From positions 1 to 45,308 of the IMG/VR virus record IMGVR_UViG_3300027533_000010: a stretch of DNA of 45,308 nt; one strand, 5' to 3'. Position numbers and translations under genes: made by a program. Positions 20,625-44,124 of the stretch are shown one piece after another. Each line of letters begins with the position of its first letter. Positions within the stretch are counted from its first letter, which is position 1. This DNA is from a virus (taxonomy: Duplodnaviria; Caudoviricetes). The notes under the pieces were generated by a model. That model had not been told where the DNA came from, made no database searches, and saw nothing but the letters and a program-made list of their open reading frames with translations.

Positions 20625-20697
20625 TAGCGGGAGAAGGACTCGAACCCCCGACCTCCTGATTATGAGTCAGGCGAGCTACCATCTGCTCCACCCCGCC
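20625..20697 (-). tRNA. tRNA with CAU anticodon (Met-type; initiator-like D arm, non-initiator anticodon stem)
   Basis: GGCGGGG acceptor, TGGAGCAGATGGTAGCTCG D arm, CCTGA-CTCATAA-TCAGG anticodon arm, GGTTCGAGTCC T arm, discriminator A; CCA not encoded. Confidence 0.92.
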
Positions 20698-23153: not shown

Positions 23154-24347
23154 TTAGGACTTCTTGTTGTAGATCCTATCCAGTTGCTCATCCGAGAGAT
23201 TCTCAACGGCCTTTGGATCGTTGAGGTCAACAGTAACAGGCTGCTTGGCAGAACCAGTGGCGGGGATCTTACTCCTCGATATGGTTTGGTGTGGCTTCGG
23301 GCGCATGGTTGCGGCCTCTGCCCTACCCTTTGTCCGAGCTTCCATCACTACCTTGTCCAGCATACCGCCCTCAACGAGCTTCGTCCGAACAAAGTGATTC
23401 AGGATTGCACCCTTCTTCAAGAAGGAAACTCCGGCACGGCTCTCGTACACGCCCTGATCTTTCAGAGCTTCTCCGATAACTGTATTGAGTTCCTCTTCCT
23501 TGAGGGTGACACCGTACTTCTTCGCAAGCGTTTCGATCTCCTTGCGCCCCTCACTCTTGAGGGAGGTGTTATGATCGACAACATCCTTTGAAGCGGTGCG
23601 GAAGTCCTCCACGATCTTCAGATTCTTGGCGTAGCGTGCTTCGTACTCTGCCTCGAACTTGAAAGCGTAGTAGGGTTGATCCCTTCTCAGAACCTCCATT
23701 TCCTCGTTCGACTTCGGGATCTCGATACCATTCCTTCTCATGTCTGCAACCACCTGGGACTGCATGACATCGCTGTAGGTTGATACCGCCACCCGTGATC
23801 GAATTTCTGACTCCGGTAGATTGAGGTTTGGTTTATCCCCTACCTCCTGAGTCGCCTGTCGCTTCGAGACCTCTGCACCCAGACGCTTGTAGAGATTCTC
23901 GACCTGCCCATAATCTTCAGCAGCCGAGGCCGCATCAATCTGAGCTTTGAACAACTCTGGGTCTAACCCCAGCGTCTTGATCTCGCTCTCAACACCCTTG
24001 ATGAGATCTTCAGGTGTCTCGAACTTTCCGGCGAATTTCACTGGCTCGTCGGTAGTGCCAGCATCGGACTCGGCCCCCGTAGAGGGGTTGGCTTTATCGC
24101 TGCCCTCCGGCTTTGTCTCAACATCCGTTACAACAATTTTGTCTGTGGTGATCGGCTGTCCATTCGCATCGAGCGACGGAGCATCGTCGTCATCTCCCGC
24201 AACCTTCACAGGCACTTCGGGTTTCGCTGCCCCGCTACCAGCGTCCGCAGACGCAACACTCTCAAGGTGTACCTGATACTGATTCAACTGCTCGTCAGTC
24301 AGTGAAGGAACCTGCTCTGGTGTTACCTTTGATGGATCGAATGTCAT
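23154..24347 (-). CDS. Capsid scaffolding protein
   Basis: Acidic disordered N-half, KFAGKFETPEDLIKG motif, helical core; immediately upstream of the MCP. Confidence 0.72.
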   Translation of the reverse strand: MTFDPSKVTPEQVPSLTDEQLNQYQVHLESVASADAGSGAAKPEVPVKVAGDDDDAPSLDANGQPITTDKIVVTDVETKPEGSDKANPSTGAESDAGTTDEPVKFAGKFETPEDLIKGVESEIKTLGLDPELFKAQIDAASAAEDYGQVENLYKRLGAEVSKRQATQEVGDKPNLNLPESEIRSRVAVSTYSDVMQSQVVADMRRNGIEIPKSNEEMEVLRRDQPYYAFKFEAEYEARYAKNLKIVEDFRTASKDVVDHNTSLKSEGRKEIETLAKKYGVTLKEEELNTVIGEALKDQGVYESRAGVSFLKKGAILNHFVRTKLVEGGMLDKVVMEARTKGRAEAATMRPKPHQTISRSKIPATGSAKQPVTVDLNDPKAVENLSDEQLDRIYNKKS

Positions 24348-24486
24348 TCTGCTTCCTTTTTCAAAAAGTTACAAATAAGAGATATGTGGTCACAAAACGA
24401 GGGCCGACCGTTCAAGTTTCCATCTCTACGTTCCGTCCCTACTCTTGAATCAATCAACCCTCAGTGTATCACCTCGGCACAACCCC

Positions 24487-24515
24487 AATGTACTACTTTA
24501 CCGATGCAGAGTCAA
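24487..24515 (-). promoter_or_regulatory. Putative late promoter TTGACT-17-TACATT
   Basis: -35 at 24510-24515, -10 at 24487-24492; upstream of scaffold/capsid genes. Confidence 0.65.
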
Positions 24516-24525
24516 TACCCCAGCC

Positions 24526-24888
24526 CTACTTCACCGCTCCCTCAAGACCCTCACGGTGCGCCCTGATCGAATTTTCTCGATCAAGGAGATGGTCGAGGGT
24601 AGGCTGGATTTCTCCCTTGCTGAGAGCAAAGAAATAGCCACCCCGAACAGAGGCAATGGGGATTCCGTTGCGACAGCAGTGATTTACTACCGCCCTAACC
24701 TGGCTGGTTCTCTTCAGTGGCCCCTTCCACCTCTTCTTCAAAATATCCTTCCCCATAATTGGAGTTTCTGGAGTCACCCGTCCATTCTCACGCAGCCCTT
24801 GAAGGGCCACTACGAAAGTTGGAGCGTAGGCCTGGAGCTTCTTGGAAAGTCTGCTCCCCGATTCGATGTCTGGAAATCCTCTTGGCAT
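24526..24888 (-). CDS. Winged-helix-like DNA-binding protein
   Basis: PIMGKDI...QVRAVVNHCCRNGIPIASVRGGYFFA pattern (HTH plus GY wing); GGAGG RBS. Confidence 0.6.
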   Translation of the reverse strand: MPRGFPDIESGSRLSKKLQAYAPTFVVALQGLRENGRVTPETPIMGKDILKKRWKGPLKRTSQVRAVVNHCCRNGIPIASVRGGYFFALSKGEIQPTLDHLLDRENSIRAHREGLEGAVK

Positions 24889-24984
24889 AACGATTTACCT
24901 CCTTTATGAGTGTGTGCTTGTTGAATAGTCCCCTCTCCCCCTTTGTCTGAGTCACGGGGAGGAGGAGGAAAAGCATTAGCAGGG

Positions 24985-25236
24985 TCATGGGGATTCTTTC
25001 TTTTGTGGATTGAAAAACGATCCTGCGATTTCATAATCAAGTGTGCCGTCTGAGTTAATTATGGTCACAAGGTCTGCTGGCAACGGCTGGACGACGGCAA
25101 CCCGCTTCCCTTGATGCGTGAGGATGAAAGTCTTTCCCATTTTCACCTGCAATATCACTTCTCCAATTCGCAAACGTAACTCCATCATCGTTATTGTCTC
25201 AAGCTGTCCAGCAAGTGGGTGGTTTTTCATTTTCAC
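24985..25236 (-). CDS. Phd/YefM-family antitoxin-like protein (orphan)
   Basis: TITMMELRLRIGEVILQVKMGKTFILTHQGKRVAVVQP matches the Phd/YefM N-terminal domain pattern. Confidence 0.78.
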   Translation of the reverse strand: MKMKNHPLAGQLETITMMELRLRIGEVILQVKMGKTFILTHQGKRVAVVQPLPADLVTIINSDGTLDYEIAGSFFNPQKKESP

Positions 25237-25460
25237 GGTCGGCTCATTTTCTTCATGTAGTTAATCACATCATTCAGACATGAGAGGTTGAACACGCAAC
25301 TTTCGTGCGAACTGAACACGTAGGTTTTCCACGGCTTGTACCAAGACAGGATTGCGAGCTGCCCCTTGCTCTTGTTGTTGAACACCCGATAGACTGGATG
25401 CTGTTCAAACACTTCACCGTTCACCTGCCGAATTGTAACGTACCTGAACCGTGTTTTCAT
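25233..25460 (-). CDS. Hypothetical protein
   Basis: 75 aa in a translationally coupled chain. Confidence 0.6.
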   Translation of the reverse strand: MKTRFRYVTIRQVNGEVFEQHPVYRVFNNKSKGQLAILSWYKPWKTYVFSSHESCVFNLSCLNDVINYMKKMSRP

Positions 25461-25768
25461 ACCATTCCTTTCAGTCTATCGCACATATACCGTATGCCGT
25501 TTCTGATGTCGGTCTTCATCCATTCCGGCATGTCCTTGTCTGGGGCGGTACTTCGCTTGCCAATGATATTCACAGCCTCCTCAATCTCTGCGTCGGTGGG
25601 GATCGCAGCCTTCAGGATGGCCTCTCTGTCGGTGGTGAGTAGTTCCACGATGGCATCATGAAGTTTTACCATCTTCACAACATCCAAAGAGCGGCTACCG
25701 ATCTGTTTGTGCGCTTCAATGATTATTTCCTCCGCTGTTTCATCCACTGTCCGTACCTTCGTGGTCAT
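25457..25768 (-). CDS. Hypothetical protein
   Basis: 103 aa, ATGA-coupled. Confidence 0.6.
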   Translation of the reverse strand: MTTKVRTVDETAEEIIIEAHKQIGSRSLDVVKMVKLHDAIVELLTTDREAILKAAIPTDAEIEEAVNIIGKRSTAPDKDMPEWMKTDIRNGIRYMCDRLKGMV

Positions 25769-26118
25769 GGCTGGCCTTTCAGTTTAGGACAGAGAATATG
25801 TTCCACTGCGTGCATTCGACTTGTCCATTGGTTGACCCCATTCTCGATGAGACAGCACTTCTGAGATTTATCCATTGTCATTACCCTTTCAAAAGTTGAA
25901 CGGTTGCGTAAGCGACACCAACAATGACGAGCCACCAGATAGTCCAGTTAGCTCTCCACAGCCACAACGGAAATCCTTCTGGACGCTTCATGTGTTTTCC
26001 TCCCAGTCGGCGTATGAGCAGCATTCCTTGCACGCGCATGGTCTGTCTCCCCACCATTCAGGGTGATGTTCCCACAGATGAAACGTCAACCACATTATCA
26101 GATTGTCAAATAGTCGTT

Positions 26119-26304
26119 TCATTTCTCTCCTTTCAGTTCTTTGAGGATGGGGGGCAGGGTAGTTTCGCCTTGAAATTTCTTGCAATGGCACAGGTCGCAA
26201 CTCCCACCACCATAGCCAACAGCCCTATGTCGATAGTCCCTATGCCCACAAACGCAGACATGCTGGTCTTTGAATTGAGCCTTTTCCCTCTCCAGTTCAG
26301 TCAT
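26119..26304 (-). CDS. Small Cys/His-rich (Zn-binding) protein
   Basis: CVCGH...H...CDLCHCKKF motif. Confidence 0.55.
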   Translation of the reverse strand: MTELEREKAQFKDQHVCVCGHRDYRHRAVGYGGGSCDLCHCKKFQGETTLPPILKELKGEK

Positions 26305-26605
26305 TTCTCTCCACCTCGCAGTTTAGGATTTCATTTAGCCCATCACGAAGTCGGGTCAATGCTTCCTTGTTCGTGATGATTTCGTTGTGGACGTAGTTCC
26401 CTTTTCTGAGTGCGAGCCACGCCATTTTGATCCTCTCTTTGAGGATGCGGATAACGCTTTGACCGGAATAGAAGGCGCATACGTAAAAGCAAATTGAAAA
26501 ATCTTTCCTGCCGCCCCAGTCGAGTTCATGAACAACAATGGACTGACACCCGCAGTCACATTCGATTTCGACCTTGACTTTCTTCTTTTTGGCTTCATTA
26601 TTCAT
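26297..26605 (-). CDS. Hypothetical protein
   Basis: Probable start MNNEAKK after an AG-rich RBS; ECDCGC motif and RIKMAWLAL helix. Confidence 0.55.
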   Translation of the reverse strand: MNNEAKKKKVKVEIECDCGCQSIVVHELDWGGRKDFSICFYVCAFYSGQSVIRILKERIKMAWLALRKGNYVHNEIITNKEALTRLRDGLNEILNCEVERND

Positions 26606-26930
26606 CCTTTCCTTCCTTCTCTCCTGCTTTGAGTTCGTGGATGATACGGTCGCGGGCTGATTGCCACGAATAACATTGGTGCGGTATTCCTCGAATAAAT
26701 CCGTCCGTGTCCTGTTCTGCCTCCGGCCACCTCGCCCGTACCACTTCCTCTGCGGGCAACATCTCCAATGCACGCAGCCAAGCATGTTCCGGCGTTGCTC
26801 TCACCGTGCCAATGAATCTGCTTTGTTGGTCTTGGATTATGAAAACATCCGGACTCTTTGGCGCACCAACCCGCACACACTCAGCCCCCTGCCTTATCTT
26901 CTTCACCAGTTCCTTTGCTGTGGGGGTCAT
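26598..26930 (-). CDS. Cassette-array gene, MTPTAKELVK class (unit 3)
   Basis: Begins with the conserved 41-nt module shared with 28252-28292. Confidence 0.7.
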   Translation of the reverse strand: MTPTAKELVKKIRQGAECVRVGAPKSPDVFIIQDQQSRFIGTVRATPEHAWLRALEMLPAEEVVRARWPEAEQDTDGFIRGIPHQCYSWQSARDRIIHELKAGEKEGKDE

Positions 26931-26942
26931 GGGCGCTTCCTG

Positions 26943-27479
26943 TCAGGCTGTTCCAGATATTCCTCGGAGCCTCACCAGTTCCGTTGTGATGGCTTCGTAT
27001 GGAATACCAACGCCATCTTCTTTCTGCTCATCGGCAGGCATGCGGGCATACAGCATGTTGATAAATGTGTTCGCTTGGTCACACACTCGCACAACCCTGA
27101 AATCTCTCCGCTCCCATCTATTCAATCTTTCCTTCGCCCTCTCCAACTCTGCCTTCAAAACATCGTGTAACCGCTTCCAAACCTGTTCTTGTTCTTGTGC
27201 GGCGAGCCTTGACATGAGTTTTGACACATGGGAGCGCAGTTCAAGAATTTCACTCCGGCATCGACCACAAATACCGTGACCTTGCTCCTTCTCGGCCTTT
27301 AGTCTCTCCACCTCTGCCTTGAGGGAGGTGTTCTCAGCTAACAGCGTCCTTACGATTGCAGCATAGTCAAGACTTGGTGGGCAATCCTTATTCTGACAAG
27401 GTCCACCGGCTGCTACTGGCCCTCCGCAATCCTGGCAGATGTGCATGCCGACGATAATGGGTAGTCCTTTCTCGCTCAT
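26943..27479 (-). CDS. Cassette-array gene, MSEK/SLKAE class (unit 3)
   Basis: MSEK start after GGTGAGG RBS; CxxC motifs and coiled coil SLKAEVERLK. Confidence 0.7.
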   Translation of the reverse strand: MSEKGLPIIVGMHICQDCGGPVAAGGPCQNKDCPPSLDYAAIVRTLLAENTSLKAEVERLKAEKEQGHGICGRCRSEILELRSHVSKLMSRLAAQEQEQVWKRLHDVLKAELERAKERLNRWERRDFRVVRVCDQANTFINMLYARMPADEQKEDGVGIPYEAITTELVRLRGISGTA

Positions 27480-27506
27480 TGCCTCACCTTTCGATTGCTC
27501 CATACT

Positions 27507-27578
27507 TCAATGCCTCCATTCTTTATAATCAGCCTTCGGGTAAATTCTCTTCACCAGTTCCTTTGCTGTTGGGGTCAT
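27507..27578 (-). CDS. 23-aa cassette-array mini-gene MTPTAKELVKRIYPKADYKEWRH (unit 2)
   Basis: ATGA-coupled to the upstream gene and carries motif B; translated by hand. Confidence 0.5.
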   Translation of the reverse strand: MTPTAKELVKRIYPKADYKEWRH

Positions 27579-27916
27579 GGGGTTTTCCTTTGCCATTCTC
27601 TTATTTTTTCTACAGTCGTGAAATTCATTTGTTTCATCCCATCCCTCTCTTCCTTCACCCTCTCCACCTCTGCCTTGAGGGAGGCGAGTTCACCGGCCAA
27701 TTCCCGTCCCGTATTGTGCGCCGCCTCAAGGTCGGAGCGGAGGGAGGCGAGTTCCTTTCTTGCGTCAAGTATTCTACAGATGAACATCGCCTCAAACATC
27801 TCGTCTGTCAGAGTTTCCTCTGTGTGTTCGTCCATTTGGATGTCTCTGAAAACCTCATCCCGCACGGCCTGAATGTCAACTTCCGAATATGATCTCACTT
27901 CCTCTTTCTCGCTCAT
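27575..27916 (-). CDS. Cassette-array gene, MSEK/ELASLKAE class (unit 2)
   Basis: MSEK start; two ELASL heptad modules. Confidence 0.7.
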   Translation of the reverse strand: MSEKEEVRSYSEVDIQAVRDEVFRDIQMDEHTEETLTDEMFEAMFICRILDARKELASLRSDLEAAHNTGRELAGELASLKAEVERVKEERDGMKQMNFTTVEKIREWQRKTP

Positions 27917-28074
27917 GGCCTCACCTCCACCGTGTACCCATATCGGTCAGCGAAAAACTGCAAGGTCGCAAGCCGCATTCGTTTAGACATAATGGTAAAA
28001 GCATACCCGATGATAAACATGGCCCGAATGTCTTTGTCCTTCACTCTTCCATTTGTGTTGATGTCGATTCTCAT
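27913..28074 (-). CDS. Hypothetical 53-aa protein
   Basis: MRIDINTNGRVKDKD...YTVEVRP; ATGA-coupled at both ends; translated by hand. Confidence 0.6.
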   Translation of the reverse strand: MRIDINTNGRVKDKDIRAMFIIGYAFTIMSKRMRLATLQFFADRYGYTVEVRP

Positions 28075-28289
28075 CGCTTCACCTCGGTTGAGAATATCTG
28101 TTTCTTGAGTTCCTTGATTCGCTTCTCCACGTCCTTAATCTCCGACAGGACAAGAAAGCGGTTGGTTGTATGCGTCTCGTCGTCGGGGTGGTAGTTATCC
28201 CATCCAAAGATTTCGGCCTTGCAGAGAATATGTATCAACTCAGCACACTCTCTTATCTTCTTCACCAGTTCCTTTGCTGTGGGGGTCAT
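28071..28289 (-). CDS. MazG-like protein fused to MTPTAKELVK leader (unit 1)
   Basis: ECAELIHILCKAEIFG...NRFLVLSEIKDV, EExxE/ExxD-type MazG pattern with the first Glu replaced. Confidence 0.6.
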   Translation of the reverse strand: MTPTAKELVKKIRECAELIHILCKAEIFGWDNYHPDDETHTTNRFLVLSEIKDVEKRIKELKKQIFSTEVKR

Positions 28290-28873
28290 GGGAGAGGGTC
28301 TCCTGGCCATTCAGTGTATGGCTTGACAGTCGGCACAATGCATCCCTCTTTGTGTCCATCACGAAAATCGTACTCACAGTACATGCAGCGGTACGATTCG
28401 TTTGTCCCATGAGCAACAATTATTCGAGCCATCTGTTTTCGTAACGCCTCCCACTTCTCCCTCTCCCCTGCCTTGAGGGAGGCGAGTTCAGCTTGCGCTG
28501 CGGAAAGGGAGGAAGACAACAGGTGATCGATACGCCAAATCGTATGCGACAATCCAGCCGTTTGAGTATCAAGGTAGTATGCGAGCCTCTCTGGACTATC
28601 CTCGTATTTTCTCCTGCACATGTGACCATAGGGCAGTAACTCTCCTGCCTCAACCAAATATCGCGCCACCTTGAAGTATTTTTCATCCACGCCAGACCGA
28701 AACGATGAACAGCGTTCACACCCTTGCCAAAAAGTAGGCGCACCGGAATTGTCCACCGTTTCAATCGGGGTGAGCTTTCCACCGCAACCCTCGCAAACGC
28801 CCCTTATGTTGGCCTCGCACTCTTCCTTTGTTGTCTTGTATTCATTCTCAGCCATTGTCTCTTTCTCGCTCAT
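28286..28873 (-). CDS. Cassette-array gene, MSEK/ELASLKA class (unit 1), Zn-ribbon payload
   Basis: MSEK start, CEGC...CERC and CMYC motifs, ELASLKA module. Confidence 0.7.
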   Translation of the reverse strand: MSEKETMAENEYKTTKEECEANIRGVCEGCGGKLTPIETVDNSGAPTFWQGCERCSSFRSGVDEKYFKVARYLVEAGELLPYGHMCRRKYEDSPERLAYYLDTQTAGLSHTIWRIDHLLSSSLSAAQAELASLKAGEREKWEALRKQMARIIVAHGTNESYRCMYCEYDFRDGHKEGCIVPTVKPYTEWPGDPLP

Positions 28874-29136
28874 CGCTTCACCTCGGTTGAGAATATCTGT
28901 TTCTTGAGTTCCTTGATTCGCTTCTCCACGTCCTTAATCTCCGACAGGACAAGAAAGCGGTTGGTTGTATGCGTCTCGTCGTCAGGATGATAATTGTCCC
29001 ACCCAAATCTTTCGGCTTTGCAGAGGATGTGAATCAGTTCAGAACATTCCTCAATCAGTTTGGTCGTTGGGCTACCAATGGCTTCGTATTTTGGATTGCT
29101 CATCGCTTCCTTCCTTTCTTGGGGATGATTGGTCAT
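28870..29136 (-). CDS. MazG-like nucleotide pyrophosphohydrolase (small)
   Basis: KLIEECSELIHILCKAERFG...LSEIKDV: EExxE...ExxD all-alpha NTP-PPase motif. Confidence 0.65.
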   Translation of the reverse strand: MTNHPQERKEAMSNPKYEAIGSPTTKLIEECSELIHILCKAERFGWDNYHPDDETHTTNRFLVLSEIKDVEKRIKELKKQIFSTEVKR

Positions 29137-29318
29137 GGAACCACCTTAACAACTTCATCACAGCCACACTTTGGGCATTCAACATTCTCATTGTCCACTC
29201 TCACCCTGCGATGTAACCAAACGCTATCATCAATGGCGCGAACTCCCTTCTTAATTGTCTGCTTGAAAATGTGGTAGCAGTTCACACACTTGCATCCCAG
29301 TTGATATGTCTCACTCAT
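29133..29318 (-). CDS. Small Zn-ribbon protein
   Basis: CVNC...CPKC; start after AAGGAG/AAGGTG RBS. Confidence 0.55.
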   Translation of the reverse strand: MSETYQLGCKCVNCYHIFKQTIKKGVRAIDDSVWLHRRVRVDNENVECPKCGCDEVVKVVP

Positions 29319-29350
29319 CTCACCTTCTCCTTTTCTTCGATGAAGCGGGC

Positions 29351-29596
29351 TTATCCGCAATGCTCGCACTGCGCACTCCCAGGTCGGACAATCTGCATAC
29401 TTCTGCGCCCACACATTGGGCAGTCAATAGACCACTGTGAACCGAACCCATCACTAATCGTTGGCGGGTCTATCATCTCTCGTCTGAGCTTGGCTGCCAG
29501 TCGCTCGGATTGTTTATGGGAGACGGTCATTCCACTTCGTTCCTCTTTCCTTTCTGACTCTCCGCACTGTACCTCCCGCTGAGTGGGTGATTTCAC
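29351..29596 (-). CDS. Small Zn-ribbon protein
   Basis: CPMC...CEHC; coupled chain. Confidence 0.55.
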   Translation of the reverse strand: MKSPTQREVQCGESERKEERSGMTVSHKQSERLAAKLRREMIDPPTISDGFGSQWSIDCPMCGRRSMQIVRPGSAQCEHCG

Positions 29597-29838
29597 TGCA
29601 TCTCCGAAAGAATTTTGTTTTGAAACTCAAGCCACTGGTTTATCTGGGTGGACTGAAGATCTTCGAGCCTCTCATCGTTCAGAGCATGACCCTTGTGCCA
29701 ACCATCGAGCCATGCCTGCTTTATCAGGCCCCACATTCTTTCTGTCTGCCTGCGCTCAAGCTCACCCTCGATCACTTCCTGTGGAATATCAACAAGAGAA
29801 CGTGACAACTGATTCAGGTCTGTGCGTTCTGCGCTCAT
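29593..29838 (-). CDS. Hypothetical protein
   Basis: 81 aa, coupled to both neighbours. Confidence 0.6.
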   Translation of the reverse strand: MSAERTDLNQLSRSLVDIPQEVIEGELERRQTERMWGLIKQAWLDGWHKGHALNDERLEDLQSTQINQWLEFQNKILSEMQ

Positions 29839-30188
29839 ACGAGCATCTCCTTTCCGGCTTCAAATGTTATTTCACGCACCAGATCCGTCGCCTGATAAAA
29901 GGCTGCCCTGCGACGGTAGGGGTCGGCATCCCAAAGCTCGTCCGGCTCTCGGTCAAACAACGACGAGCACCCATACTCAAGAATCTGGTCGGTTGGAGTG
30001 AGGCACTTCGCACAACCACAGCATTCGCAGAACTCCGTCCGGCTGCGAACAGCCTCATCGACCTTCCACTGGGTAAAACCTCGCCCAAAAATATCCTCCA
30101 TTACCTCAACCGGAGAGCGGAGTCCATGCACCGCCTTCGCCATATCGTGATCGAGTAATTCTCTGTATGTATTGAGTGCCATCATCAT
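29835..30188 (-). CDS. Hypothetical Cys-containing protein
   Basis: 117 aa, coupled; CECCGCAKC motif. Confidence 0.6.
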   Translation of the reverse strand: MMMALNTYRELLDHDMAKAVHGLRSPVEVMEDIFGRGFTQWKVDEAVRSRTEFCECCGCAKCLTPTDQILEYGCSSLFDREPDELWDADPYRRRAAFYQATDLVREITFEAGKEMLV

Positions 30189-30436
30189 GCCCTTTCAAAG
30201 ACAGTGCTTAGATCCAATGGGAGCTTCTCGTCAACGCCGACCCTAAGTATCTGAACCACGTACCGATTTCGCCCAGACTTCATCTCTGGGAATGGAAACC
30301 CAGCCACACTGTCTGCATCATCGGGCCTCACAATGAAATCACCCAAGTGTCTGTGTCGCCCATCCTGGAAAGATAGGACGGTATCTTCGCTGTATCGTCC
30401 CACCCATACCACTACGGTTTTTGGCTTTGACATCAT
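30185..30436 (-). CDS. Hypothetical protein
   Basis: Start reassigned by ATGA coupling. Confidence 0.55.
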   Translation of the reverse strand: MMSKPKTVVVWVGRYSEDTVLSFQDGRHRHLGDFIVRPDDADSVAGFPFPEMKSGRNRYVVQILRVGVDEKLPLDLSTVFERA

Positions 30437-30639
30437 CGCACCCATGTGGTGTACTGTTCGGAACCGACCGCCCTGTATCGACGGATGGAGTGGAACCTGA
30501 AGGGGCCGATCAGCAAATTCTTCGCTGTCTCTGCGGCGATAATCGGCAACGCTCTTAGGTCGGCAGGGGATTCGACAATGAGCGTCCGGTACTTCGATTC
30601 GTCAGAAAAGCAATCAACCTCGATCATTTGTGAGTTCAT
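30433..30639 (-). CDS. Hypothetical protein (68 aa, MNSQMIEVDC...)
   Basis: 3' part of ORF 30433..31062; TAATG coupling and GGAGG RBS. Confidence 0.55.
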   Translation of the reverse strand: MNSQMIEVDCFSDESKYRTLIVESPADLRALPIIAAETAKNLLIGPFRFHSIRRYRAVGSEQYTTWVR

Positions 30640-30878
30640 TAGAAGATCCTCCGTAGTGTTCTGTAGATCTTGCAGCTGAGACACTGGCAGGTGGCACGCT
30701 CTGGGGTCATGTAAATGTAGCGGGTTCCAATCAGGTTCGCCTGGACTGGGATGGAGATTGGATTCTTGGGAGAGCCGAGATGCATCCGCCCTCCCCGGAT
30801 AAAGCCGACAGTAGCACCTGGAAGGCCTCTGTCTGTAGAGATCATCACGCAACCATCTCGAACTGGGGTGAGTTTCAC
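30639..30878 (-). CDS. Hypothetical protein
   Basis: GTGA-coupled start; C-terminal CxCxxC. Confidence 0.5.
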   Translation of the reverse strand: MKLTPVRDGCVMISTDRGLPGATVGFIRGGRMHLGSPKNPISIPVQANLIGTRYIYMTPERATCQCLSCKIYRTLRRIF

Positions 30879-31102
30879 AGGGCCACCTCGTAGGTAAGAT
30901 CGGGGTTGACAACCCACACACCATCGGCGGCACGATAGACCACCTGCTGCTGGGCGAGGGAGTGGAAGGTACGACCGAAGAAACCTTGAAGCTGGGAGAG
31001 GAGACCGTTGTTGGCGAGGAAGCACCACGCCTCCAAAACCTGATCGTTATCCTCGGCCTCAATCACTCCCTCGCAGATCATTGTTGCTGTGTAGTTGTCC
31101 AT
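30875..31102 (-). CDS. Conserved small phage early protein
   Basis: EAWCFLANNGLLSQLQGFFGRT resembles a recurring phage family motif (LQG.YGR); first gene after a strong promoter, with ACGGAGG RBS. Confidence 0.7.
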   Translation of the reverse strand: MDNYTATMICEGVIEAEDNDQVLEAWCFLANNGLLSQLQGFFGRTFHSLAQQQVVYRAADGVWVVNPDLTYEVAL

Positions 31103-31138
31103 TTGATCCTCCGTTGATTAGTGTTATTGTCTGGGATC

Positions 31139-31167
31139 AAGATAAGTACGAAGTGGTCAAAAGTCAA
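31139..31167 (-). promoter_or_regulatory. Sigma70-type promoter TTGACT-17-TATCTT with operator-like 14-mer in the spacer
   Basis: -35 at 31162-31167, -10 at 31139-31144; TTGACCACTTCGTA at 31147-31160; A/T-rich UP-like tract upstream. Confidence 0.8.
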
Positions 31168-31403
31168 GAGGTTTGTAAAATATTTTTTTGGCCTTTATTT
31201 GTTGACTGGAATGTCACTGCGATCATAAGGAGCATTACGATAAGCTCGTCCTCGCCATCCCCAAACCATCCGACCGCCAGAGGGAACGCCATAGTCCACT
31301 GGCCCTTCTGGATCATCCATTTAATCTTTGTGATCCTGAATGGACTACAGAAATAGATCGGGACGAGACCGAGAACAACGGCAAGAAGAATGATCGCTAC
31401 CAT
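31164..31403 (-). CDS. Small multi-pass membrane protein (possible second holin/antiholin)
   Basis: Two to three hydrophobic segments; overlaps the end of the endolysin gene. Confidence 0.45.
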   Translation of the reverse strand: MVAIILLAVVLGLVPIYFCSPFRITKIKWMIQKGQWTMAFPLAVGWFGDGEDELIVMLLMIAVTFQSTNKGQKNILQTS

Positions 31404-31897
31404 GTAAGACCCTCCATAGTGTATGCGGTGATGACGTTGAGTGGGAGTTTCGATAGAGTCTCCGAGGGAAGATTCCATGCACAGTCAAAATGAACGAACG
31501 AGCTTGATCCCTGATCGTTGCGATACTGAAGATACCCAATCCTCGGAACCCGATAGCCGAGTGCGGCGGCGGAGTCACGAAACAGTTTTGCGAGATCTAC
31601 GTCCGTCATGTCGTCCGGCACATCAACATCAAGGGCTGCGCCAAGAACGTGCGGACTGTACTTCGCTGTTCGATATCCCTTTTTCGTTAAGAGATCCTGA
31701 TACCTCTGAGATCTCCGTCCAGAGTTGATCTTGATGGACCGACCGTAGAACTCACGGGCCTGGTCAAAGATCTCCAGGGTGCAGGTGAGGATCACCTTCT
31801 CTTCAGGAAGAAGCCAGATGTCTCTGTCTGGATAGAGTTCTCCGTGAGAGGAATATCTCCCAGACTGAGACCACAGGTTGTTCGTAATGCTACGCAC
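31397..31897 (-). CDS. Peptidase M15-family (Zn D-Ala-D-Ala-type) endolysin
   Basis: INSGRRS...SPHVLGAALDV...IGY...FVHFD: SxH, D and HxD zinc ligands. Confidence 0.85.
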   Translation of the reverse strand: MRSITNNLWSQSGRYSSHGELYPDRDIWLLPEEKVILTCTLEIFDQAREFYGRSIKINSGRRSQRYQDLLTKKGYRTAKYSPHVLGAALDVDVPDDMTDVDLAKLFRDSAAALGYRVPRIGYLQYRNDQGSSSFVHFDCAWNLPSETLSKLPLNVITAYTMEGLTW

Positions 31898-32138
31898 CCA
31901 TGTACTCTTCGGGAGAGAGCTTTCTTCCTTCTGGGGTCGGAATCTTTCCTGCGATGGCCTGATCCAACTGTCCGTCAGTCAGTTCATCTGGAAACTTTGT
32001 ACTCATCCCAGTCTCATCAGCCTCTTGCTGGATAAGACCCGTGACCTCATCCAAGAGTGTTGCCGCCTCTGGGATGCTCTCAACCAAACCTCGAAGCTGT
32101 TCGAGCTTGGTAAGAATTTCTGGACTATACTTTGGCAT
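31890..32138 (-). CDS. Hypothetical acidic protein
   Basis: 82 aa, AGGAGG RBS; LTDGQLDQ motif resembles the scaffold termini. Confidence 0.65.
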   Translation of the reverse strand: MPKYSPEILTKLEQLRGLVESIPEAATLLDEVTGLIQQEADETGMSTKFPDELTDGQLDQAIAGKIPTPEGRKLSPEEYMGA

Positions 32139-32149
32139 TTGAAGCCTCC

Positions 32150-32434
32150 TTACGGTGTTACGATTGATCTCCTCTTCGGCTCAAGCGAGCTTCTGTGAAT
32201 CTCGCCAAGACTCAGAATCTTTGCTGCTGTGAGATTGACGAGCGACTGACGCATCCAGTGGCCTGTCTTTTTGTTTCGAACCAGTCCGGTACATATCCCC
32301 CGAACACGACCATACATTCCGTCAACCTTCACACGGGGGCGGTGCGTGTTACGCTCCCGCTCCACCTTATCTTTTCTGTCAGAGATGAAGGTATGTCCAC
32401 AGTTTGAACAGTGGTATGAATACTTTCCAATCAT
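32150..32434 (-). CDS. Hypothetical Zn-finger-like protein
   Basis: YHCSNCGHTF...H; ATGA-coupled. Confidence 0.55.
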   Translation of the reverse strand: MIGKYSYHCSNCGHTFISDRKDKVERERNTHRPRVKVDGMYGRVRGICTGLVRNKKTGHWMRQSLVNLTAAKILSLGEIHRSSLEPKRRSIVTP

Positions 32435-32913
32435 AGGATCTCCAGGATACTGTTATTGAGTCCGGCAAAATAATGAAGCCCAACCACCACTCCGACGATC
32501 AGTTGATCGGGCCAGTATAGTGGAAAGCGATACCACTCCACTCCGAAAAAATCTCCGATAAGATTTGGATGAATCAATCTCGCTGGAGACCCCTCGTGAA
32601 AGAATAGATCGAGTACATTGTGCGTCAGCATTCCAAAGGCGATCATCACAAGCCACGCCACAGAAATAAAGAACGATAGGGCGAACGCCAGCACAAAGAG
32701 TGCGCCAACGACCGTCAGTGTGTGCATCCACCCGAACGTCATTTGTGCCCAGGGCGGCATCTGGATGAACCACGACCACAAAGAAGCCTTTCGCCTCCAG
32801 ACATTCCACCATCCGACCAGACCAATCAAGTCTGGAAGGATTGCACCCAGCACGCACCACCATCCAAAGATCCCACCGACGATCATGTGGGTCAGACCAA
32901 AGCTTGCAAGCAT
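32431..32913 (-). CDS. Membrane-bound metal-dependent hydrolase (YdjM/DUF457-like)
   Basis: THMIVG, GAILPDL, HT and THNVLDL motifs embedded in TM helices. Confidence 0.75.
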   Translation of the reverse strand: MLASFGLTHMIVGGIFGWWCVLGAILPDLIGLVGWWNVWRRKASLWSWFIQMPPWAQMTFGWMHTLTVVGALFVLAFALSFFISVAWLVMIAFGMLTHNVLDLFFHEGSPARLIHPNLIGDFFGVEWYRFPLYWPDQLIVGVVVGLHYFAGLNNSILEIL

Positions 32914-32928
32914 AACTCCTCCGTTTGT

Positions 32929-39429: not shown

Positions 39430-39699
39430 TTATTGATTCACCAGAAAGCAGGTGAGTGGATGGATGATTGCGTTCCTTGCTTCGTTCTCTGGAAAGAAAC
39501 GTACGGGGGTTTCCCCCTTGACCGGATCACGGACAACGGCGTAGGTAAGCAGGGTGAACTCACCGTCTGGGATGGCGGCAATCTTAAACCGAGGCCCAAG
39601 ATTCCGAGCGAACTCAATCGCCTCTATTGGTGTACCAAGCTCTTTTGAGACGACTACAACCTGTTTCTCTGTTGGGAACACTTGCCTTTCACGGATCAC
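39430..39699 (-). CDS. Hypothetical protein
   Basis: 89 aa, GTGA-coupled. Confidence 0.55.
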   Translation of the reverse strand: MIRERQVFPTEKQVVVVSKELGTPIEAIEFARNLGPRFKIAAIPDGEFTLLTYAVVRDPVKGETPVRFFPENEARNAIIHPLTCFLVNQ

Positions 39700-40325
39700 G
39701 GTGTTTTGCCTCCGAAAAATAGTTCTGGGTTAGAGTAAATTAGATACACAATCCTATCGCTCACCTTGTTTGTGCAGCCGCCCACAAACAGGTCGTACTG
39801 GTCTGGCTCAAGCTCTTTCAGTTCTCTTCTGAAGTACACGATCAGTAGTGCCAACTCCTCCTCTGTGAATTTCCGTGTGCGATTAGTTTTCTGATACAGC
39901 AGATCGAACTCGGTCTCGCCGTACCGCTTCTTGAACCATCTGTGGTAAGGGATCTGGTCTGCCTCATGATAGTGATTACACTTAGCACACTGGCAGTGGA
40001 CATTCAGCGGGTGAAAAAAGATCTCCCTGAACACTCTGGAGAACACATGGCCAGCCTGAAGATGATCTCTCTTGTGACACAGCACGCAAGCCCTATCTCT
40101 CGCCCTGACGTAGAGGCTCTGAAGTCTTTCAGCCTCTTTGAATAATTCCCGCGCTCCGGCTGGAGACCTGCGCCTCTTCAATGTCCGGTCTTTCTTGAGT
40201 TCCTGCTTACGGTTCCACTTGTTCCAGCAGTCCTCACACTGAACCCTCGGCTCAAAGTGAGCCATGTACTGTGGATGAACTTTACAACGTCCTCTCTTTG
40301 GAGGTTTCGGTGCGGTCGTCATCAA
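39696..40325 (-). CDS. ninG: NinG/Rap-like HNH-type endonuclease (resolvase)
   Basis: YVRARDRACVLC...AGHVFSR...NVHCQCAKCN...Y...YG. Confidence 0.82.
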   Translation of the reverse strand: MMTTAPKPPKRGRCKVHPQYMAHFEPRVQCEDCWNKWNRKQELKKDRTLKRRRSPAGARELFKEAERLQSLYVRARDRACVLCHKRDHLQAGHVFSRVFREIFFHPLNVHCQCAKCNHYHEADQIPYHRWFKKRYGETEFDLLYQKTNRTRKFTEEELALLIVYFRRELKELEPDQYDLFVGGCTNKVSDRIVYLIYSNPELFFGGKTP

Positions 40326-40672
40326 TTATCCAGTGAGATTGGAAGGTCGATCATTTCTTTTTTGAGATCCTCCAGGATCTCTTGGTCTGAGATCTCCCGC
40401 AGGAGCATCATGTCAGCACAGGCCCTCAGAGCAGCAGAGGCCGAGAGGGGACACTCGATACCGTGAGTCTCACCCAGCAACAGAAGGATGTCCCTCATCA
40501 TCGTGTGTGGCTCACTGACCGCAGGAATATCTGAATGGTCGTTGAGTACGTGAACGCAGCATCGTGCAAGGGCGGTATCACGGATCTGTTTGTACTTTGG
40601 GTTATTCATCATGTTGTACGTGCCCCAGCGTGCCAACATTTCCCATCCCGCTGCATTCATGTCCCTTGTCAT
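40322..40672 (-). CDS. Hypothetical protein
   Basis: Start reassigned to MTRDMN by ATGA coupling. Confidence 0.55.
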   Translation of the reverse strand: MTRDMNAAGWEMLARWGTYNMMNNPKYKQIRDTALARCCVHVLNDHSDIPAVSEPHTMMRDILLLLGETHGIECPLSASAALRACADMMLLREISDQEILEDLKKEMIDLPISLDN

Positions 40673-41097
40673 AGAAAATCCTGCTGGTCTGGATCTGGAA
40701 GAATGATCCCGAATTTTTGTGAGGCCCAACGAGCTACGGAATCAAACAGTTCAGACATCCGCTTCTTTGATAGTGTGGCCGTGGACTCTGGGATCGTCGC
40801 CTCACCGATGATCTCTCCGGTCTTTGGATCGCACAGGAACTCTCTGACCCCCAAGAACTCCTGCTTCAAATACTCGTGCATAGCACCCTCCTCCCACCCG
40901 AAGTAGTCCGCAAGCGGCTTAACTCGGAGAGCGTGCCATGCACGATTTTGAGCGACCGACCGAACATCCTCCACCCTCTTGAGGGATAGAACATAGTGAC
41001 CTTCAGGGAGAGATTCAATCTCTTTCCGAAAATCCTTTCTACCGTCCGGCAGGTGGAGCTTCTTCCCGTCAATCCTTACAACGGTCTGGAGGCTCAC
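40669..41097 (-). CDS. ninB: NinB/Orf-like recombination accessory protein
   Basis: RSVAQNRAWH...HEYLKQEFL...STATLSKKRMSELFD...LPDP. Confidence 0.75.
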   Translation of the reverse strand: MSLQTVVRIDGKKLHLPDGRKDFRKEIESLPEGHYVLSLKRVEDVRSVAQNRAWHALRVKPLADYFGWEEGAMHEYLKQEFLGVREFLCDPKTGEIIGEATIPESTATLSKKRMSELFDSVARWASQKFGIILPDPDQQDFL

Positions 41098-42257
41098 GCT
41101 ACAAACTCCTTCAGTCGAGTGTTGATGGCAGCCTGGAGTGTCTCTGCGTCAGGGGCACGAAGGTCGCCCTCATTCAAGCACTTCCTGACAACAAGGCTGA
41201 ACGACTTTAAGCCTGTCGCCGTTGAAGCCTTCTTAATCAGTTGAGTGAAGTGATCTCGCTGACGATCCAGCTTGCGCTCCACGGCATCCTGTGGGTTGAC
41301 TGGTGCTGGTGCGGGAGCAGGCTCTTTGACTGCACCAGTGAGTGGCACATCCCCCTCGGCGACTGGCCCCATTGTCGCCTTTTCCCTACGCTGGGCCTTG
41401 ACTGGAGCAAGTCCCTCGGTTTTCTTGGTCTCTCCAAGCAGCAGGTGGCTCTTGCGTTTCTCCTCCACCTCAGCCTGAAGTATGGTGGCGTTCTCCGGCC
41501 TGAGATGTCCATTCTTCACCGAGAGGGCGATTGCATCGAGAATCACATCCAGGGCTGTGACCTTTACGATATTCTTGATTCTCTCACGAAAATTCCCCAG
41601 AGAAACACTGTCATCCAGAATGGCCTGGGTTTCGTCTGCGTGACCGATGTCCTCGACCTCTCTACGCTGATCCATCTCCTCATTCACGTACACATCACCA
41701 AGCTCTGCACTGAAAGCCTTCCTGAGAGCCAGGGCCTCAGCACACTTGGCAAGCTGGTTCCGAGGCATCTTTCTCCACATGAATCCATTATCACCCTCCT
41801 CATCACCACCCTTCCTGGGGCAGTATTCATCCCAGTAGGCAGTGGCCGTGTACGCACACCGCTGACCCTCGATCATCCGATAGACCGTCACCCGTGCGAA
41901 CTCAGGATGACCCTCGGACATCTCACCAAACACAGCCTCGTCCATTCCGGCAAGCTGTTTGGTTCGATGGGCCATTGTCCTGTAGCCATCAATCCCAGTT
42001 TGAACGGTGTAGCGCACTCCCTTCTTGGTTTTCCTCGGCACAAGATGAAGCTCCTTGCGAAGAGGTGAGAGTCCCGTGTGACGAGCCACGGTTGAAAAAT
42101 ACCTCGCCACTGGCGGGGGAGTTTTCTCTGGGAGGATTCCGACCGTGACCATTGTTTCAATGTCCGCCACGGTGAATCCATACTTTACGATCTCTGCTCT
42201 CTGTTCATCGCTGAAACCTTCGAGATCCTGATCTCGAACAACAACCGATTCTGTCAT
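41094..42257 (-). CDS. bet: Single-strand annealing recombinase (Bet/RecT)
   Basis: GLSPLRKELHLVP, QTGIDGYR, WDEY and MWRKMPRNQLAKCAEALALRKAF. Confidence 0.92.
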   Translation of the reverse strand: MTESVVVRDQDLEGFSDEQRAEIVKYGFTVADIETMVTVGILPEKTPPPVARYFSTVARHTGLSPLRKELHLVPRKTKKGVRYTVQTGIDGYRTMAHRTKQLAGMDEAVFGEMSEGHPEFARVTVYRMIEGQRCAYTATAYWDEYCPRKGGDEEGDNGFMWRKMPRNQLAKCAEALALRKAFSAELGDVYVNEEMDQRREVEDIGHADETQAILDDSVSLGNFRERIKNIVKVTALDVILDAIALSVKNGHLRPENATILQAEVEEKRKSHLLLGETKKTEGLAPVKAQRREKATMGPVAEGDVPLTGAVKEPAPAPAPVNPQDAVERKLDRQRDHFTQLIKKASTATGLKSFSLVVRKCLNEGDLRAPDAETLQAAINTRLKEFVA

Positions 42258-42451
42258 ACCTCTCCTTCAATTTTTGATAACGCACTGAACATCTTGATCG
42301 CAAAACCACGGTGCTTCGCTATAACTTCTGGCAACTCAGAACACTCGCCGTTAGTGCAGACCACAAGCCACCAGTCATCCGCTATACCAGCCTTCTTCAC
42401 ATCAACCTTATTTTGCTTGCAGGCTGGGCATTGAATCTTGGAAGGATTCAC
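42254..42451 (-). CDS. Lar-like Zn-ribbon protein
   Basis: CPAC...WLVVC...C...AIKMF resembles Lar restriction-alleviation proteins; sits between exo and bet. Confidence 0.5.
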   Translation of the reverse strand: MNPSKIQCPACKQNKVDVKKAGIADDWWLVVCTNGECSELPEVIAKHRGFAIKMFSALSKIEGEV

Positions 42452-43338
42452 TTGATTCTCAATTCCCTGTACGACTTTGCTGGTGAAACAAACTCTTTCT
42501 TACTGATCCGCTTGTAGGTAGCCACGACCTCTCCGTCCCGTGTGAGGGTGTCGTACTCTCCCATAAAAAACTTCAGGGCCTCCTTCAGCTTTTTCTCTTC
42601 AGACTCAGCCTGAGACTTAATAACCTGCTGGGCCTTCAACTCTCTCACCTGAGAGAGAATGTCTGTCGTCACCTCGATTGGAGCGACGACCGTCTCCATC
42701 GCCTCAATATCCATAAGCTGTGGAGCGGGTGGGATTTCGACCTGAGCGTGCTCAGTCCAGAACTGAAAACCAACCTTCCTGGCGTTCTCAATGAACTCTT
42801 CATTCCTGAAGAACGGGCCAAACTCTTCGTAGTACCGACCGTCCACGAGCAGAGCCAGCATCTCCCACTCCAGCCCAGTAACGAAAAGCTCCCACTGAAT
42901 CTGAGCGTAATAGGATGGGGGGATTGACTCCCCCCAGTTTTTCCTTGAATACTGCGAGGCTGTCTTGATGGATAGTATCCCTTGACCCTTCCCGACCGGA
43001 AGGTCAACAGAATCCTTTGTGGGCCGAACCATGCGGTCAATGTTGCAGAGAAAAAAGTCTGTCTCTGGGTGAAACCGGATCTTGAAGTCCTCCAAGACCT
43101 TGCACTTATGTACCTCAGAGAACTTCTTTGCGACGACCCCCTCCAACCTCAGACCGAACTCGGTCGCTGGATTTTCAGAGTCATCGTGCAGACCCATTGT
43201 CTTTTCATTGAAAAGCTGGAGCGGGGTCTTGTACTTGTTGACATCAAGAAGAACTCCAATGTCTGATCCTCCAATCCCAGACCTGCGATTGGTGAGCCAG
43301 TCGGTTCGGCTCATCCCCTTTGTCGAGATACTTTTCAT
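42448..43338 (-). CDS. YqaJ-like (lambda-exonuclease family) 5'-3' exonuclease
   Basis: WLTNRRSGIGGSD, YKTPLQL, GLRLE, NID, SIKT (E-to-S variant of EIKT) and YYAQIQW. Confidence 0.92.
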   Translation of the reverse strand: MKSISTKGMSRTDWLTNRRSGIGGSDIGVLLDVNKYKTPLQLFNEKTMGLHDDSENPATEFGLRLEGVVAKKFSEVHKCKVLEDFKIRFHPETDFFLCNIDRMVRPTKDSVDLPVGKGQGILSIKTASQYSRKNWGESIPPSYYAQIQWELFVTGLEWEMLALLVDGRYYEEFGPFFRNEEFIENARKVGFQFWTEHAQVEIPPAPQLMDIEAMETVVAPIEVTTDILSQVRELKAQQVIKSQAESEEKKLKEALKFFMGEYDTLTRDGEVVATYKRISKKEFVSPAKSYRELRIK

Positions 43339-43719: not shown

Positions 43720-44124
43720 CTAAAAGGGCAGACCCTCATCGGGATCGCTCGCAGGCTGTGAGGTCGTTCCGGCAACAGGGTCTCCGTTCCTTCGGCCACC
43801 CAAGAGAGTAACCTGAGAAGCCACAACGAACACAGACCTCCTTTTCTGACCAGTCTCCCGATCTTCCCACTCGTTCGTCCGCAGGCGGCCCTGAATGAGC
43901 AGCGGATCTCCCTTCTTCACATACTTCTCAACGATGTCCGCCGACCCCTTCCAGAGTTGAATCTTGATGTACTCCGTCCATTCCTGACTATCGCCATTGC
44001 TGTCCTTGAACTTTTCATTCATTGCAATGGTGATATTGCAGACCTTAATCCCAGAGTTTGTGAAATTTACCTCTGGGTCTCCGGTAACATTCCCGCCCAC
44101 GAAAACAGAATTAACCCCTCTCAT
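43720..44124 (-). CDS. ssb: Single-stranded DNA-binding protein
   Basis: VNSVFVGGNVTGDPE...KKGDPLLIQGRLRTNEWED; acidic tail ending DEGLPF. Confidence 0.95.
   Translation of the reverse strand: MRGVNSVFVGGNVTGDPEVNFTNSGIKVCNITIAMNEKFKDSNGDSQEWTEYIKIQLWKGSADIVEKYVKKGDPLLIQGRLRTNEWEDRETGQKRRSVFVVASQVTLLGGRRNGDPVAGTTSQPASDPDEGLPF

Follow-up and report, generated by a model that had tools for sequence, protein, structure and literature searches.

The 45,308-nt phage genome IMGVR_UViG_3300027533_000010 (hereafter the window, meaning the whole stretch of DNA that was analyzed) contains an array of short repeated sequence modules within a block of small accessory genes. An initial annotation, made from the window alone, had interpreted this array as a recombinase-driven shuffling system built upon three fixed modules (A, B, and C) with swapped payloads. 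Judged from comparison with other genomes, the exchange of payloads is real. Our best explanation, which we regard as probable, is that the accessory block carries ~12 ordered anchors of 15-60 nt, at which general Red-type recombination (RecT/exonuclease), and not a site-specific enzyme, exchanges genes and gene halves, with RecT as the putative agent of exchange. The array combines boundary/linker-sequence mosaicism with chimeric genes of the Ea22-like type, and does so at the sub-gene scale and with unusual purity. Because the ea regions of lambdoid phages, examined as a control, show the same short islands at gene starts, the kind of arrangement is already known and the difference is one of degree. 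The array is not a member of the integrons, PeSLs, diversity-generating retroelements (DGRs), or Ea22 family.

It is a long-running question whether phage mosaics are formed at conserved linkers or by random illegitimate joins followed by selection, and the published view, at least in the parts of the literature considered here, is that linker sequences are undetectable at most boundaries. The block offers a clean natural test case, as three genomes share little beyond ordered anchors, the anchor lengths lie near the Red-beta pairing limit, and one insertion has been caught both with and without. It also shows a possible origin of new small phage proteins from half-gene parts, below the 100-200 bp cut-offs of surveys.

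Shared islands and exchanged payloads in two partner contigs

A degenerate module B pattern was scanned over metagenome contigs, which identified six stretches (L003 to L008). Three of these (L005 to L007) were dropped as the window's own contig and L004 is the same phage, leaving L003 (3401 nt) and L008 (1229 nt) as non-identical partners. The partners carry phage-type genes (Dam methylase, DUF4326, and DUF4031) and align to the window almost solely as short islands. L003 has 16 and L008 has 13 exact matches of at least 16 nt inside 24400-32900, with none elsewhere in the genome. Merging yielded 10 and 6 islands, respectively, whose longest exact matches measure 15-42 and 21-37 nt (medians of 28 and 34.5 nt) and reach at least 23 nt in 7 of 10 and 5 of 6 islands. 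The islands occupy just 15% (L003) and 20% (L008) of the spanned DNA and are spaced 81-331 nt apart, save for one 2-nt gap. The partners share 147 and 117 15-mers with the window, whereas no more than 3 were obtained in any of the 200 Markov shuffles made for each contig. L003 and L008 also have anchors D, E, A, C, and B in common with each other, and the anchor order is identical, being D, E, A, C, B in all three genomes and then F, G, MTELE, H, I, J in the window and L003. A start codon is touched by 7 of 10 islands in L003 and 5 of 6 in L008 vs. 1.6 and 1.3 expected (p = 0.0003 and 0.002), p-values that are somewhat generous, since island B of each contig had served as the search pattern and gene starts were assigned by eye. 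The islands that do not touch a start are intragenic.

Between the islands, the payloads differ. The D-E interval encodes a 61-aa Zn ribbon in the window, a 96-aa basic protein in L003, and a 51-aa hydrophobic protein in L008, while the E-A interval is occupied by a MazG-like gene in the window, a Zn ribbon in L003, and a pair of genes, one of them DUF4031, in L008. When the anchors were masked, blastp among 25 genes returned a single strong pair, which consists of two MazG copies; the remaining 6 rows had E-values of 0.03-0.55. Thus, different payloads do sit between the same modules in other contigs, as the initial annotation had anticipated, and the content of L003 and L008 is neither fixed nor that of a simple decayed triplication. 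Within the islands, gene B1 and the L003 B gene have 91% nucleotide identity and use the same codon at 29 of 34 shared residues, compared to 38% identity and 4 of 15 shared residues between the islands, a contrast that is partly circular because islands are defined by identity.

Several anchors are conserved irrespective of reading frame. Anchor D lies past the upstream gene's own stop codon in the window, but forms the gene end in L003 and L008. Anchor E is a gene end in L003, but is noncoding or in another frame in the window and L008. Anchor M terminates a whole DUF4031 gene in L008 (PF13223, E = 5e-15), whereas in the window it is out of frame after a 23-aa stub; the stub itself had been noted initially, to which the trailing DUF4031 tail can now be added. 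As D, E, and M are conserved even though they are not translated in the same frame, selection at the protein level alone is an insufficient explanation.

Contigs of X7, X8, and X20 matched at least eight single islands with unlike flanks, including B twice, G, and H, among the 16 of 20 loose ends listed and at a likeness threshold of 80. One X8 contig, read by hand at anchor G, continues into an MTEL start, like L003, and anchor H was matched in isolation by an X8 contig. More isolated matches with unlike flanks (X20 and X7 contigs) were seen at 28718-28768, 31076-31112, and 31360-31397, and these may be further anchors or chance at a likeness of 80. In L003, the block lies downstream of a methylase and an apparent DnaC-type C-terminus, judged by eye (without a Pfam match), rather than between portal and capsid genes, which hints at a different genome layout. 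Elsewhere, the B, C, D, and G patterns had no matches in the viral contig collection, the B and E patterns had none in the genome contig collection, where no host or prophage was found, and the nine matches among GenBank phages (E = 0.4-5) were at chance level. A capsid-protein search had L001 as its sole match, which is the same phage as the window.

Repeated modules, chimeric genes, and the 799-nt unit

Inside the window, modules A (a ribosome-binding site, RBS, plus ATGAGCGAGAAAG), B (MTPTAKELVK), and C (SLKA) each occur in three copies on the minus strand in the order A-C-B, which confirms their initial description. B1 and B3 match exactly over 41 nt, and module C has two weaker additional copies (Table 1). 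The repeated cores, some of which are narrower than the tabulated intervals, are at 27465-27490, 27902-27927, and 28859-28884 for A, at 26879-26933, 27527-27581, and 28238-28292 for B, and at 27311-27336, 27667-27692, and 28465-28490 for C. Of 16 exact direct repeats in the whole 45-kb genome (at least 14 nt, copies at most 5 kb apart), 10 fall in 26893-28983. Self-blastn E-values were 3e-16 for B, 5e-7 for C, and just 0.003-0.14 for A; modules B and C are far above chance, while module A alone is weak. The interval first assigned to the array (26598..29136) was too small, as the anchor set extends from ~25616 to 29531 and includes at least 12 anchors of 15-60 nt. A comparison of 12 anchors found no common motif (median longest shared word of 6 nt over 66 pairs) and no hairpin, dyad, or palindrome, the longest self-complementary words being 2-5 nt and no fold falling below a z of -1.9. 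Promoter- and terminator-like sites in 24300-33000 were at chance, with 8 and 10 vs. 7.4 and 8.5 in shuffles. The idea of a distinct shuffling system with three fixed modules was not upheld, because the anchors are many and mutually unrelated, phages P22, ES18, and HK620 have similar islands, and another phage (L012) has the same layout with other anchors. Regarding the assembly, an X1 unitig at 26904-28099 covers A1, B2, C1, C2, and A2 and further unitigs cover A3 to C3, with identity ≥99% and depth of 13-17. The X1 unitigs end at the 41-nt B repeat and at a 115-nt repeat, and most other junctions were confirmed.

The proposal that the array yields chimeric proteins held up well. In B3, the B start continues in frame into MazG, protein P0004 has anchors B, F, and G around new interiors, and the gene delimited by MTELE and ILKELKG has different middles in the window and L003. 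Protein P0005 shares the first B1 interior but none of the anchors, and 26745-26826 is 73% identical over 82 nt in L012. Other than B3, the interiors of the B genes look like distant homologues of one two-repeat family, as far as their sequences indicate. The P0005 model has two alpha-beta-beta-beta-alpha repeats, with a predicted local distance difference test (pLDDT) score of 88.7, and the B-family model resembles the arrangement of double-stranded RNA-binding domains (best Z of 7.0, root-mean-square deviation of 2.6, 55 aligned), although a Z below 8 may reflect a common arrangement. B-family proteins are predicted to be tandem repeats resembling such domains, with anchors B and F as the starts of repeats 1 and 2 of the predicted fold. 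For this family, there was no weighty match in Pfam or among the sequences of solved structures, atlas matches were <0.9, and Foldseek returned no match at E = 0.001. The A genes have MSEK and ELASLKAEVER in common, while their domains are otherwise dissimilar, and a coiled coil is suggested only by sub-threshold Pfam matches. The interiors of five A genes exhibited no detectable mutual similarity, A1, A2, and A3 had no PF13935 match at E = 0.01, and gene A2 had no relative besides a 99% copy. The payloads had been described as unrelated, which fits the A interiors, but not the B3 payload, a second copy of the MazG-like gene, nor the remaining B interiors, which look like one family. Several small genes of the block have no family match.

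The strongest repeat of the array, which had been missed initially, is a 181-nt direct repeat (28070-28250 and 28869-29049) comprising two MazG-like gene copies, of which the last 115 nt are identical. Across 22 codons (76% nucleotide identity), 13 of 19 shared residues use other codons, after which 0 of 38 codons differ (p = 1e-8). The identical block ends in the RBS and ATGAG of module A. The MazG-like payload had no Pfam match and was recognized by phrog_4856 matches only. L004, an independent assembly, corresponds to the window minus 28070-28868, with 1 mismatch in 2456 nt. The same 799-nt joint is present in one contig each of X5 and X7, both of which are weak, as they cross, at low depth, a repeat that exceeds the word size; both runs also contain pieces of the unit, so these may be low-depth joins. 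In X4, the 799-nt unit accounts for 3 of 4 empty bins, and one loose end (28184) continues as the other repeat copy, a pattern that fits the short form, although missing cover is no proof. The X1 unitig graph also permits a 799-nt circle. One natural breakpoint lies in module A, where the 115-nt repeat shares it. In the simplest reading, a complete A-C-B unit (799 nt) would have been inserted out of register, with crossovers in module A and in a diverged MazG allele.

Table 1. Recombination genes of the window and features of the anchor array (window positions; nt matches refer to the named contigs)
Feature	Position	Strand	Remarks
NinG/Rap junction endonuclease	39696..40325	-	PF05766 E 4e-12
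NinB/Orf recombination mediator	40669..41097	-	phrog_72 E 1e-15
RecT/Bet-like single-strand annealing protein	41094..42257	-	PF03837 E 4e-22; phrog_2449 E 3e-42
YqaJ/RecE-like exonuclease	42448..43338	-	PF09588 E 7e-28; phrog_434 E 2e-61
SSB	43720..44124	-	PF00436 E 3e-31
Anchor K, start of Zn-finger gene (MTVSHKQSER)	29498..29531	-	lone match in one X8 contig, both flanks unlike
Anchor D: RFIEEKEKVR* gene end + RBS + ATG	29315..29347	-	30 nt exact L003, 33 nt exact L008
D-E payload: 61-aa Zn-ribbon gene	29133..29318	-	replaced by 96-aa gene (L003), 51-aa gene (L008)
Anchor E: RBS/start junction	29098..29130	-	27 nt exact L003, 25 nt exact L008
MazG-like NTP pyrophosphohydrolase gene, resident copy (predicted)	28870..29103	-	phrog_4856 E 3e-11
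115-nt identical direct repeat, copy 1 (MazG 3' part + RBS + ATGAG of module A)	28869..28983		
Module A3 (RBS + MSEK), one end of 799-nt unit	28858..28887	-	26 nt exact L003, 25 nt L008
799-nt unit (A3 gene + C3 + B3-MazG chimera)	28070..28868		absent from L004
Gene A3, 195 aa: MSEK, Zn-ribbon-like segments, ELASLKA	28286..28873	-	
Module C3 (ELASLKA)	28465..28490	-	
Module B3 (MTPTAKELVKKIR)	28238..28294	-	41 nt exact with B1 and L003; 37 nt with L008
B3-MazG chimeric gene: B start, diverged MazG allele, identical 3' block	28071..28289	-	phrog_4856 E 3e-10
115-nt identical direct repeat, copy 2	28070..28184		
53-aa gene without family match	27913..28074	-	
Module A2	27901..27927	-	
Gene A2, 113 aa, acidic, likely coiled-coil	27575..27916	-	
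Module C2 (ELASLKAEVERVKE)	27642..27692	-	32 nt exact L003, 37 nt L008; partial extra copy 27740-27754
Module B2 (27527-27581) + 23-aa stub	27507..27584	-	
Anchor M: remnant of the final DUF4031 gene codons, out of frame	27484..27519	-	36 nt exact L008
Module A1	27465..27490	-	
Gene A1, 178 aa: Zn-finger-like segment + likely coiled coil	26943..27479	-	
Module C1	27286..27336	-	weaker copy 27129-27155
Module B1	26879..26933	-	42 nt exact L003
Gene B1, 110 aa: anchors B, F, G around interiors of the two-repeat small phage family	26598..26930	-	P0002, P0004, P0005, P0009
Anchor F (LPAEEVVRA), within gene B1	26729..26763	-	35 nt, 86% with L003; peptide also in P0004
Anchor G (RIIHELKAGEKE), gene B1 end	26610..26650	-	29 nt exact L003; isolated X8 contig match
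Gene between start anchor MTELE (26291-26305) and end anchor H, ILKELKG (26129-26153)	26119..26305	-	middle differs in L003
Anchor I (LKGQP*/MTTKVRT)	25728..25784	-	38 nt exact L003, where a 16-codon stub comes next
Anchor J (DREAI), intragenic	25616..25638	-	17 nt exact L003

Proposed mechanism and rival explanations

The window encodes a complement of general recombination genes (Table 1), in which the Bet and Exo of the initial annotation are confirmed as RecT (PF03837, E = 4e-22) and YqaJ (PF09588, E = 7e-28). The absence of an integrase also stood, as the tyrosine recombinase profile PF00589 had 0 matches in the window (14 of 14 in the working control). Likewise, there were 0 matches for the resolvase/invertase PF00239 (control 12 of 14) or the reverse transcriptase PF00078 (control 3 of 14), and an Rfam search of the window returned nothing except one tRNA.

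In the proposed mechanism, the capture of a payload would be a rare event, occurring via microhomology or a homeologous crossover with a distant homologue. Possible examples are the B start and MazG, joined where both chance to resemble each other, and the B1 interior held in common with P0005. Crossovers in the anchors would subsequently carry an anchor-flanked payload from one co-infecting phage to another, such that the anchors stay near-identical while the interiors diverge, and anchors containing a stop, RBS, start, or coiled-coil heptad would keep the product expressed and in frame. The triplication would result from out-of-register exchanges, with module A (15-21 nt shared) bounding the latest unit on one side and a homeologous MazG allele on the other, an arrangement that would leave the 115-nt duplication. 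The stubs (B2 with its DUF4031 tail, and that of L003 after anchor I) may be emptied slots. In the cited part of PMC3945230, efficient pairing is given as requiring at least 23-27 bp with Red-beta and 31-34 with RecA, while RecET is reported in a portion of PMC2327257 to join homologies of 5-13 bp at ~1e-8. The median exact match of the islands (28-35 nt) can be compared with the Red-beta value. We also entertain, as a doubtful but conceivable extension, that otherwise unrelated phages keep ordered, self-reinforcing anchors trimmed to about the shortest length usable by a Red-beta-type annealing protein, which would constitute a combinatorial library of half-gene parts with its own anchor vocabulary in each gene pool.

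A number of observations weigh against RecT-mediated exchange at the anchors. No crossover was observed, and neither module A nor the 15-nt crossover site reaches the 23-27 bp quoted for efficient Red-beta pairing. Rearrangement variants with breakpoints in the modules had been expected, and the L004 variant does have one end in module A, but no joint between short modules alone was found in 8 of 24 runs, a search of contigs at a depth of mostly <6 that cannot show absence. The sole population variant uses the 115-nt repeat, which would be usable by host RecA as well, and an old MazG duplication followed by gene conversion and later deletion could be the alternative to an insertion. In the viral contigs, the module A pattern was found only in L009 and L010, neither of which shares another anchor; module A can thus likely arise by convergence of an RBS and MSEK. 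The record containing L009 is complete and has no RecT match. RecT was found in 0 of 4 records of L009 to L012, of which three are only 11-27% complete and hence uninformative for L012. Lastly, there are just two short partner contigs (3.4 and 1.2 kb), both found via module B, the anchor lengths and order rest upon three genomes, and any recombinase genes of the partners would lie outside of their contigs. As a separate observation, L009 (a 61-kb viral contig) has four exact repeats of 14-18 nt at 657-5676 among small genes beside the module A-like start.

The most serious competitor, which we nonetheless consider unlikely, is that random illegitimate replacements together with selection whittled the shared DNA down to translation-coupling junctions and functional peptides, making the anchors survivors rather than preferred crossover sites. 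Random illegitimate joining followed by selection is the prevailing view for most mosaic boundaries in the cited parts of PMC3029335 and PMC2327257, most anchors do contain a stop, RBS, or start, and the 102-aa window gene between G and MTELE has only a short purine-rich RBS word on both sides. However, survivors of random events should vary by pair and drift at third positions, whereas the same islands recur whichever two of the three genomes are compared and are present three times in a single genome, with synonymous sites unchanged, even out of frame. Random illegitimate recombination therefore likely explains the first capture of payloads, but not the lasting identity of the anchors.

A dedicated cassette system, in which an unrecognized phage protein would recognize the modules and excise or integrate units (e.g. 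the 799-nt unit) as circles, is very improbable. In its favour, the slots are ordered, the stubs resemble empty slots, direct repeats bound the 799-nt unit, the X1 unitig graph allows the 799-nt circle, and several small genes have no family match. Against it, searches for tyrosine recombinases, serine recombinases, and reverse transcriptases were negative, the anchors lack a motif (median 6-nt common word over 66 pairs), dyad, or fold, and L012 has a different anchor set. Even less credence is due to a decayed tandem triplication of one A-C-B unit in which only functional peptides were kept: the same order does recur three times, the B interiors form one family, and MazG is truly duplicated, yet the A interiors have no detectable similarity, B3 is paired with MazG and B2 with a DUF4031 tail, the anchors match their counterparts in other genomes (26-42 nt exact) better than the interiors match any sequence, and synonymous conservation is confined to the anchors, such that L003 and L008 already largely refute it. 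Equally remote are assembly chimeras produced by graph assemblers joining unrelated phages at shared short words, because X1 unitigs span most modules (≥99%, depth 13-17), L004 is an independent assembly with the same sequence, and such joins presuppose natural shared words, which means that the anchors are real, even though the order across the 41-nt B and 115-nt repeats rests upon the window's own assembly and the X5 and X7 skips are single low-depth contigs over a repeat exceeding the word size.

Genome setting and comparison with known systems

The window is a complete circular genome with a 127-nt terminal repeat (100% complete in the virus record) of an uncultured phage from groundwater, and every called gene is on the minus strand. 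Its sequence is present in groundwater and sediment metagenomes, with at least half of its words in 7 of 24 listed runs. Profile matches identified a P22-like portal (32929-34980), a terminase (34989-36461), a capsid protein (21733-23091), and a replication initiator. About 8.5 kb of small genes separates the portal from the gene preceding the capsid gene, with the anchor array located mid-block. Such accessory blocks usually adjoin replication or recombination genes; this one (24400-32913) splits the head module between the portal and pre-capsid genes and is distant from the replication and recombination genes. A 2563-aa internal-virion-like protein (2264-9955) is a likely ejection protein and a pectate-lyase-like protein (17516-19096) a likely tailspike, while the tRNA gene detected by Rfam (20625-20697, minus strand) lies amid virion genes. 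A dNMP kinase, an HD 5'-deoxynucleotidase (with a weak dATP triphosphohydrolase match), and a metallophosphoesterase are encoded at 44121-45283 and 341-1177; together with the two MazG-like genes (28071-29103), they make up a nucleotide-pool set that may serve base modification or counter-defence. An 83-aa gene (24985-25236) has a Phd/YefM antitoxin-like match below threshold (E = 4e-4), and a 45-nt imperfect inverted repeat (43655-43699) lies near the start of the 102-aa gene following SSB.

No paper describing the pattern of the array was found in a literature search that was thin on subscription papers, and the array was compared to several known systems. Like integrons, it consists of arrayed small genes that have junction sites between them and are replaced in a slot-like manner, but it has no integrase or attC-like palindromes and its junctions are coding and heterogeneous. 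The PeSL cassettes of T4-type phages (PMC2839356, as far as the cited part goes) are similar in that repeats of hyperplastic regions are homologous recombination sites, small genes are gained, lost, and replaced, and circles are possible. However, PeSLs are one family of intergenic promoter and stem-loop elements, whereas the array anchors are many, unrelated, and mostly coding, reside in a phage with a P22-type portal, and had no detected sigma-70 promoter or terminator. Red/Rad52-like relaxed recombination, as covered in parts of PMC3945230 and PMC2327257, has in common a RecT and exonuclease, homeologous crossover (here the MazG alleles at 76% beside an identical block), and the exchange of small gene fragments. 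The surveys concerned counted matches of at least 100-200 bp, which places islands of the array's size below the cut-off, and in the array it is the short flanks that are conserved, while the exchanged parts are dissimilar.

Ea22/Ead genes encode a shared N-terminus and coiled coil on dissimilar C-terminal domains in the accessory run of Red-type phages (PMC10834534, in the portion cited), a plan that the A genes may resemble, and frequent fragment shuffling is anticipated for small accessory proteins, according to part of PMC10684548. The array differs by its lack of PF13935, by having a variable domain between the start and putative coiled-coil modules as well, and by three further gene frames (B-F-G, MTELE-H, and I-J) that behave alike.

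The closest resemblance is to boundary mosaicism. According to the linker/boundary model, in the cited parts of PMC2327257, PMC3029335, and PMC2839356, modules are exchanged via short conserved flanking sequences. As in the array, short shared sequences flank dissimilar modules, mostly at gene boundaries, the order is kept, and general recombination genes are present. Exchange of this type in lambdoid phages was reportedly described by Botstein and Campbell and by Clark et al. in 2001. As a control, the identical blastn analysis was applied to the ea regions of P22, HK620, HK97, and ES18. There, 13 of 30 segments were ≤60 nt (median of 114.5 nt), several at eaA, eaD, and eaF starts. Seven short segments were obtained when P22 was paired with HK620 and with ES18, and 5 of these overlap annotated starts (eaA, eaD twice, eaF, and orf45). 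P22 (L013) even repeats a 26-nt start module at eaD and eaF (25481 and 25837), a small version of the same layout. With the caveat that the contrast may be overstated, since the partner contigs are short and were picked via one anchor, short islands in the lambdoid ea regions are mixed with shared segments of 100-1000 nt, whereas segments of the array are ≤60 nt at ≥85% identity in 15 of 16, 10 of 12, and 7 of 7 cases, several being intragenic. A scan with an L012 anchor retrieved only two already known records. L012, whose terminase and portal are unlike those of the window, has nine exact repeats of 14-26 nt at 2049-4184 that constitute other anchors, and its accessory run, which lies between a replication-initiator-like gene and the terminase, includes two adjacent B-family genes. 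Therefore, the layout is not tied to the modules of the window.

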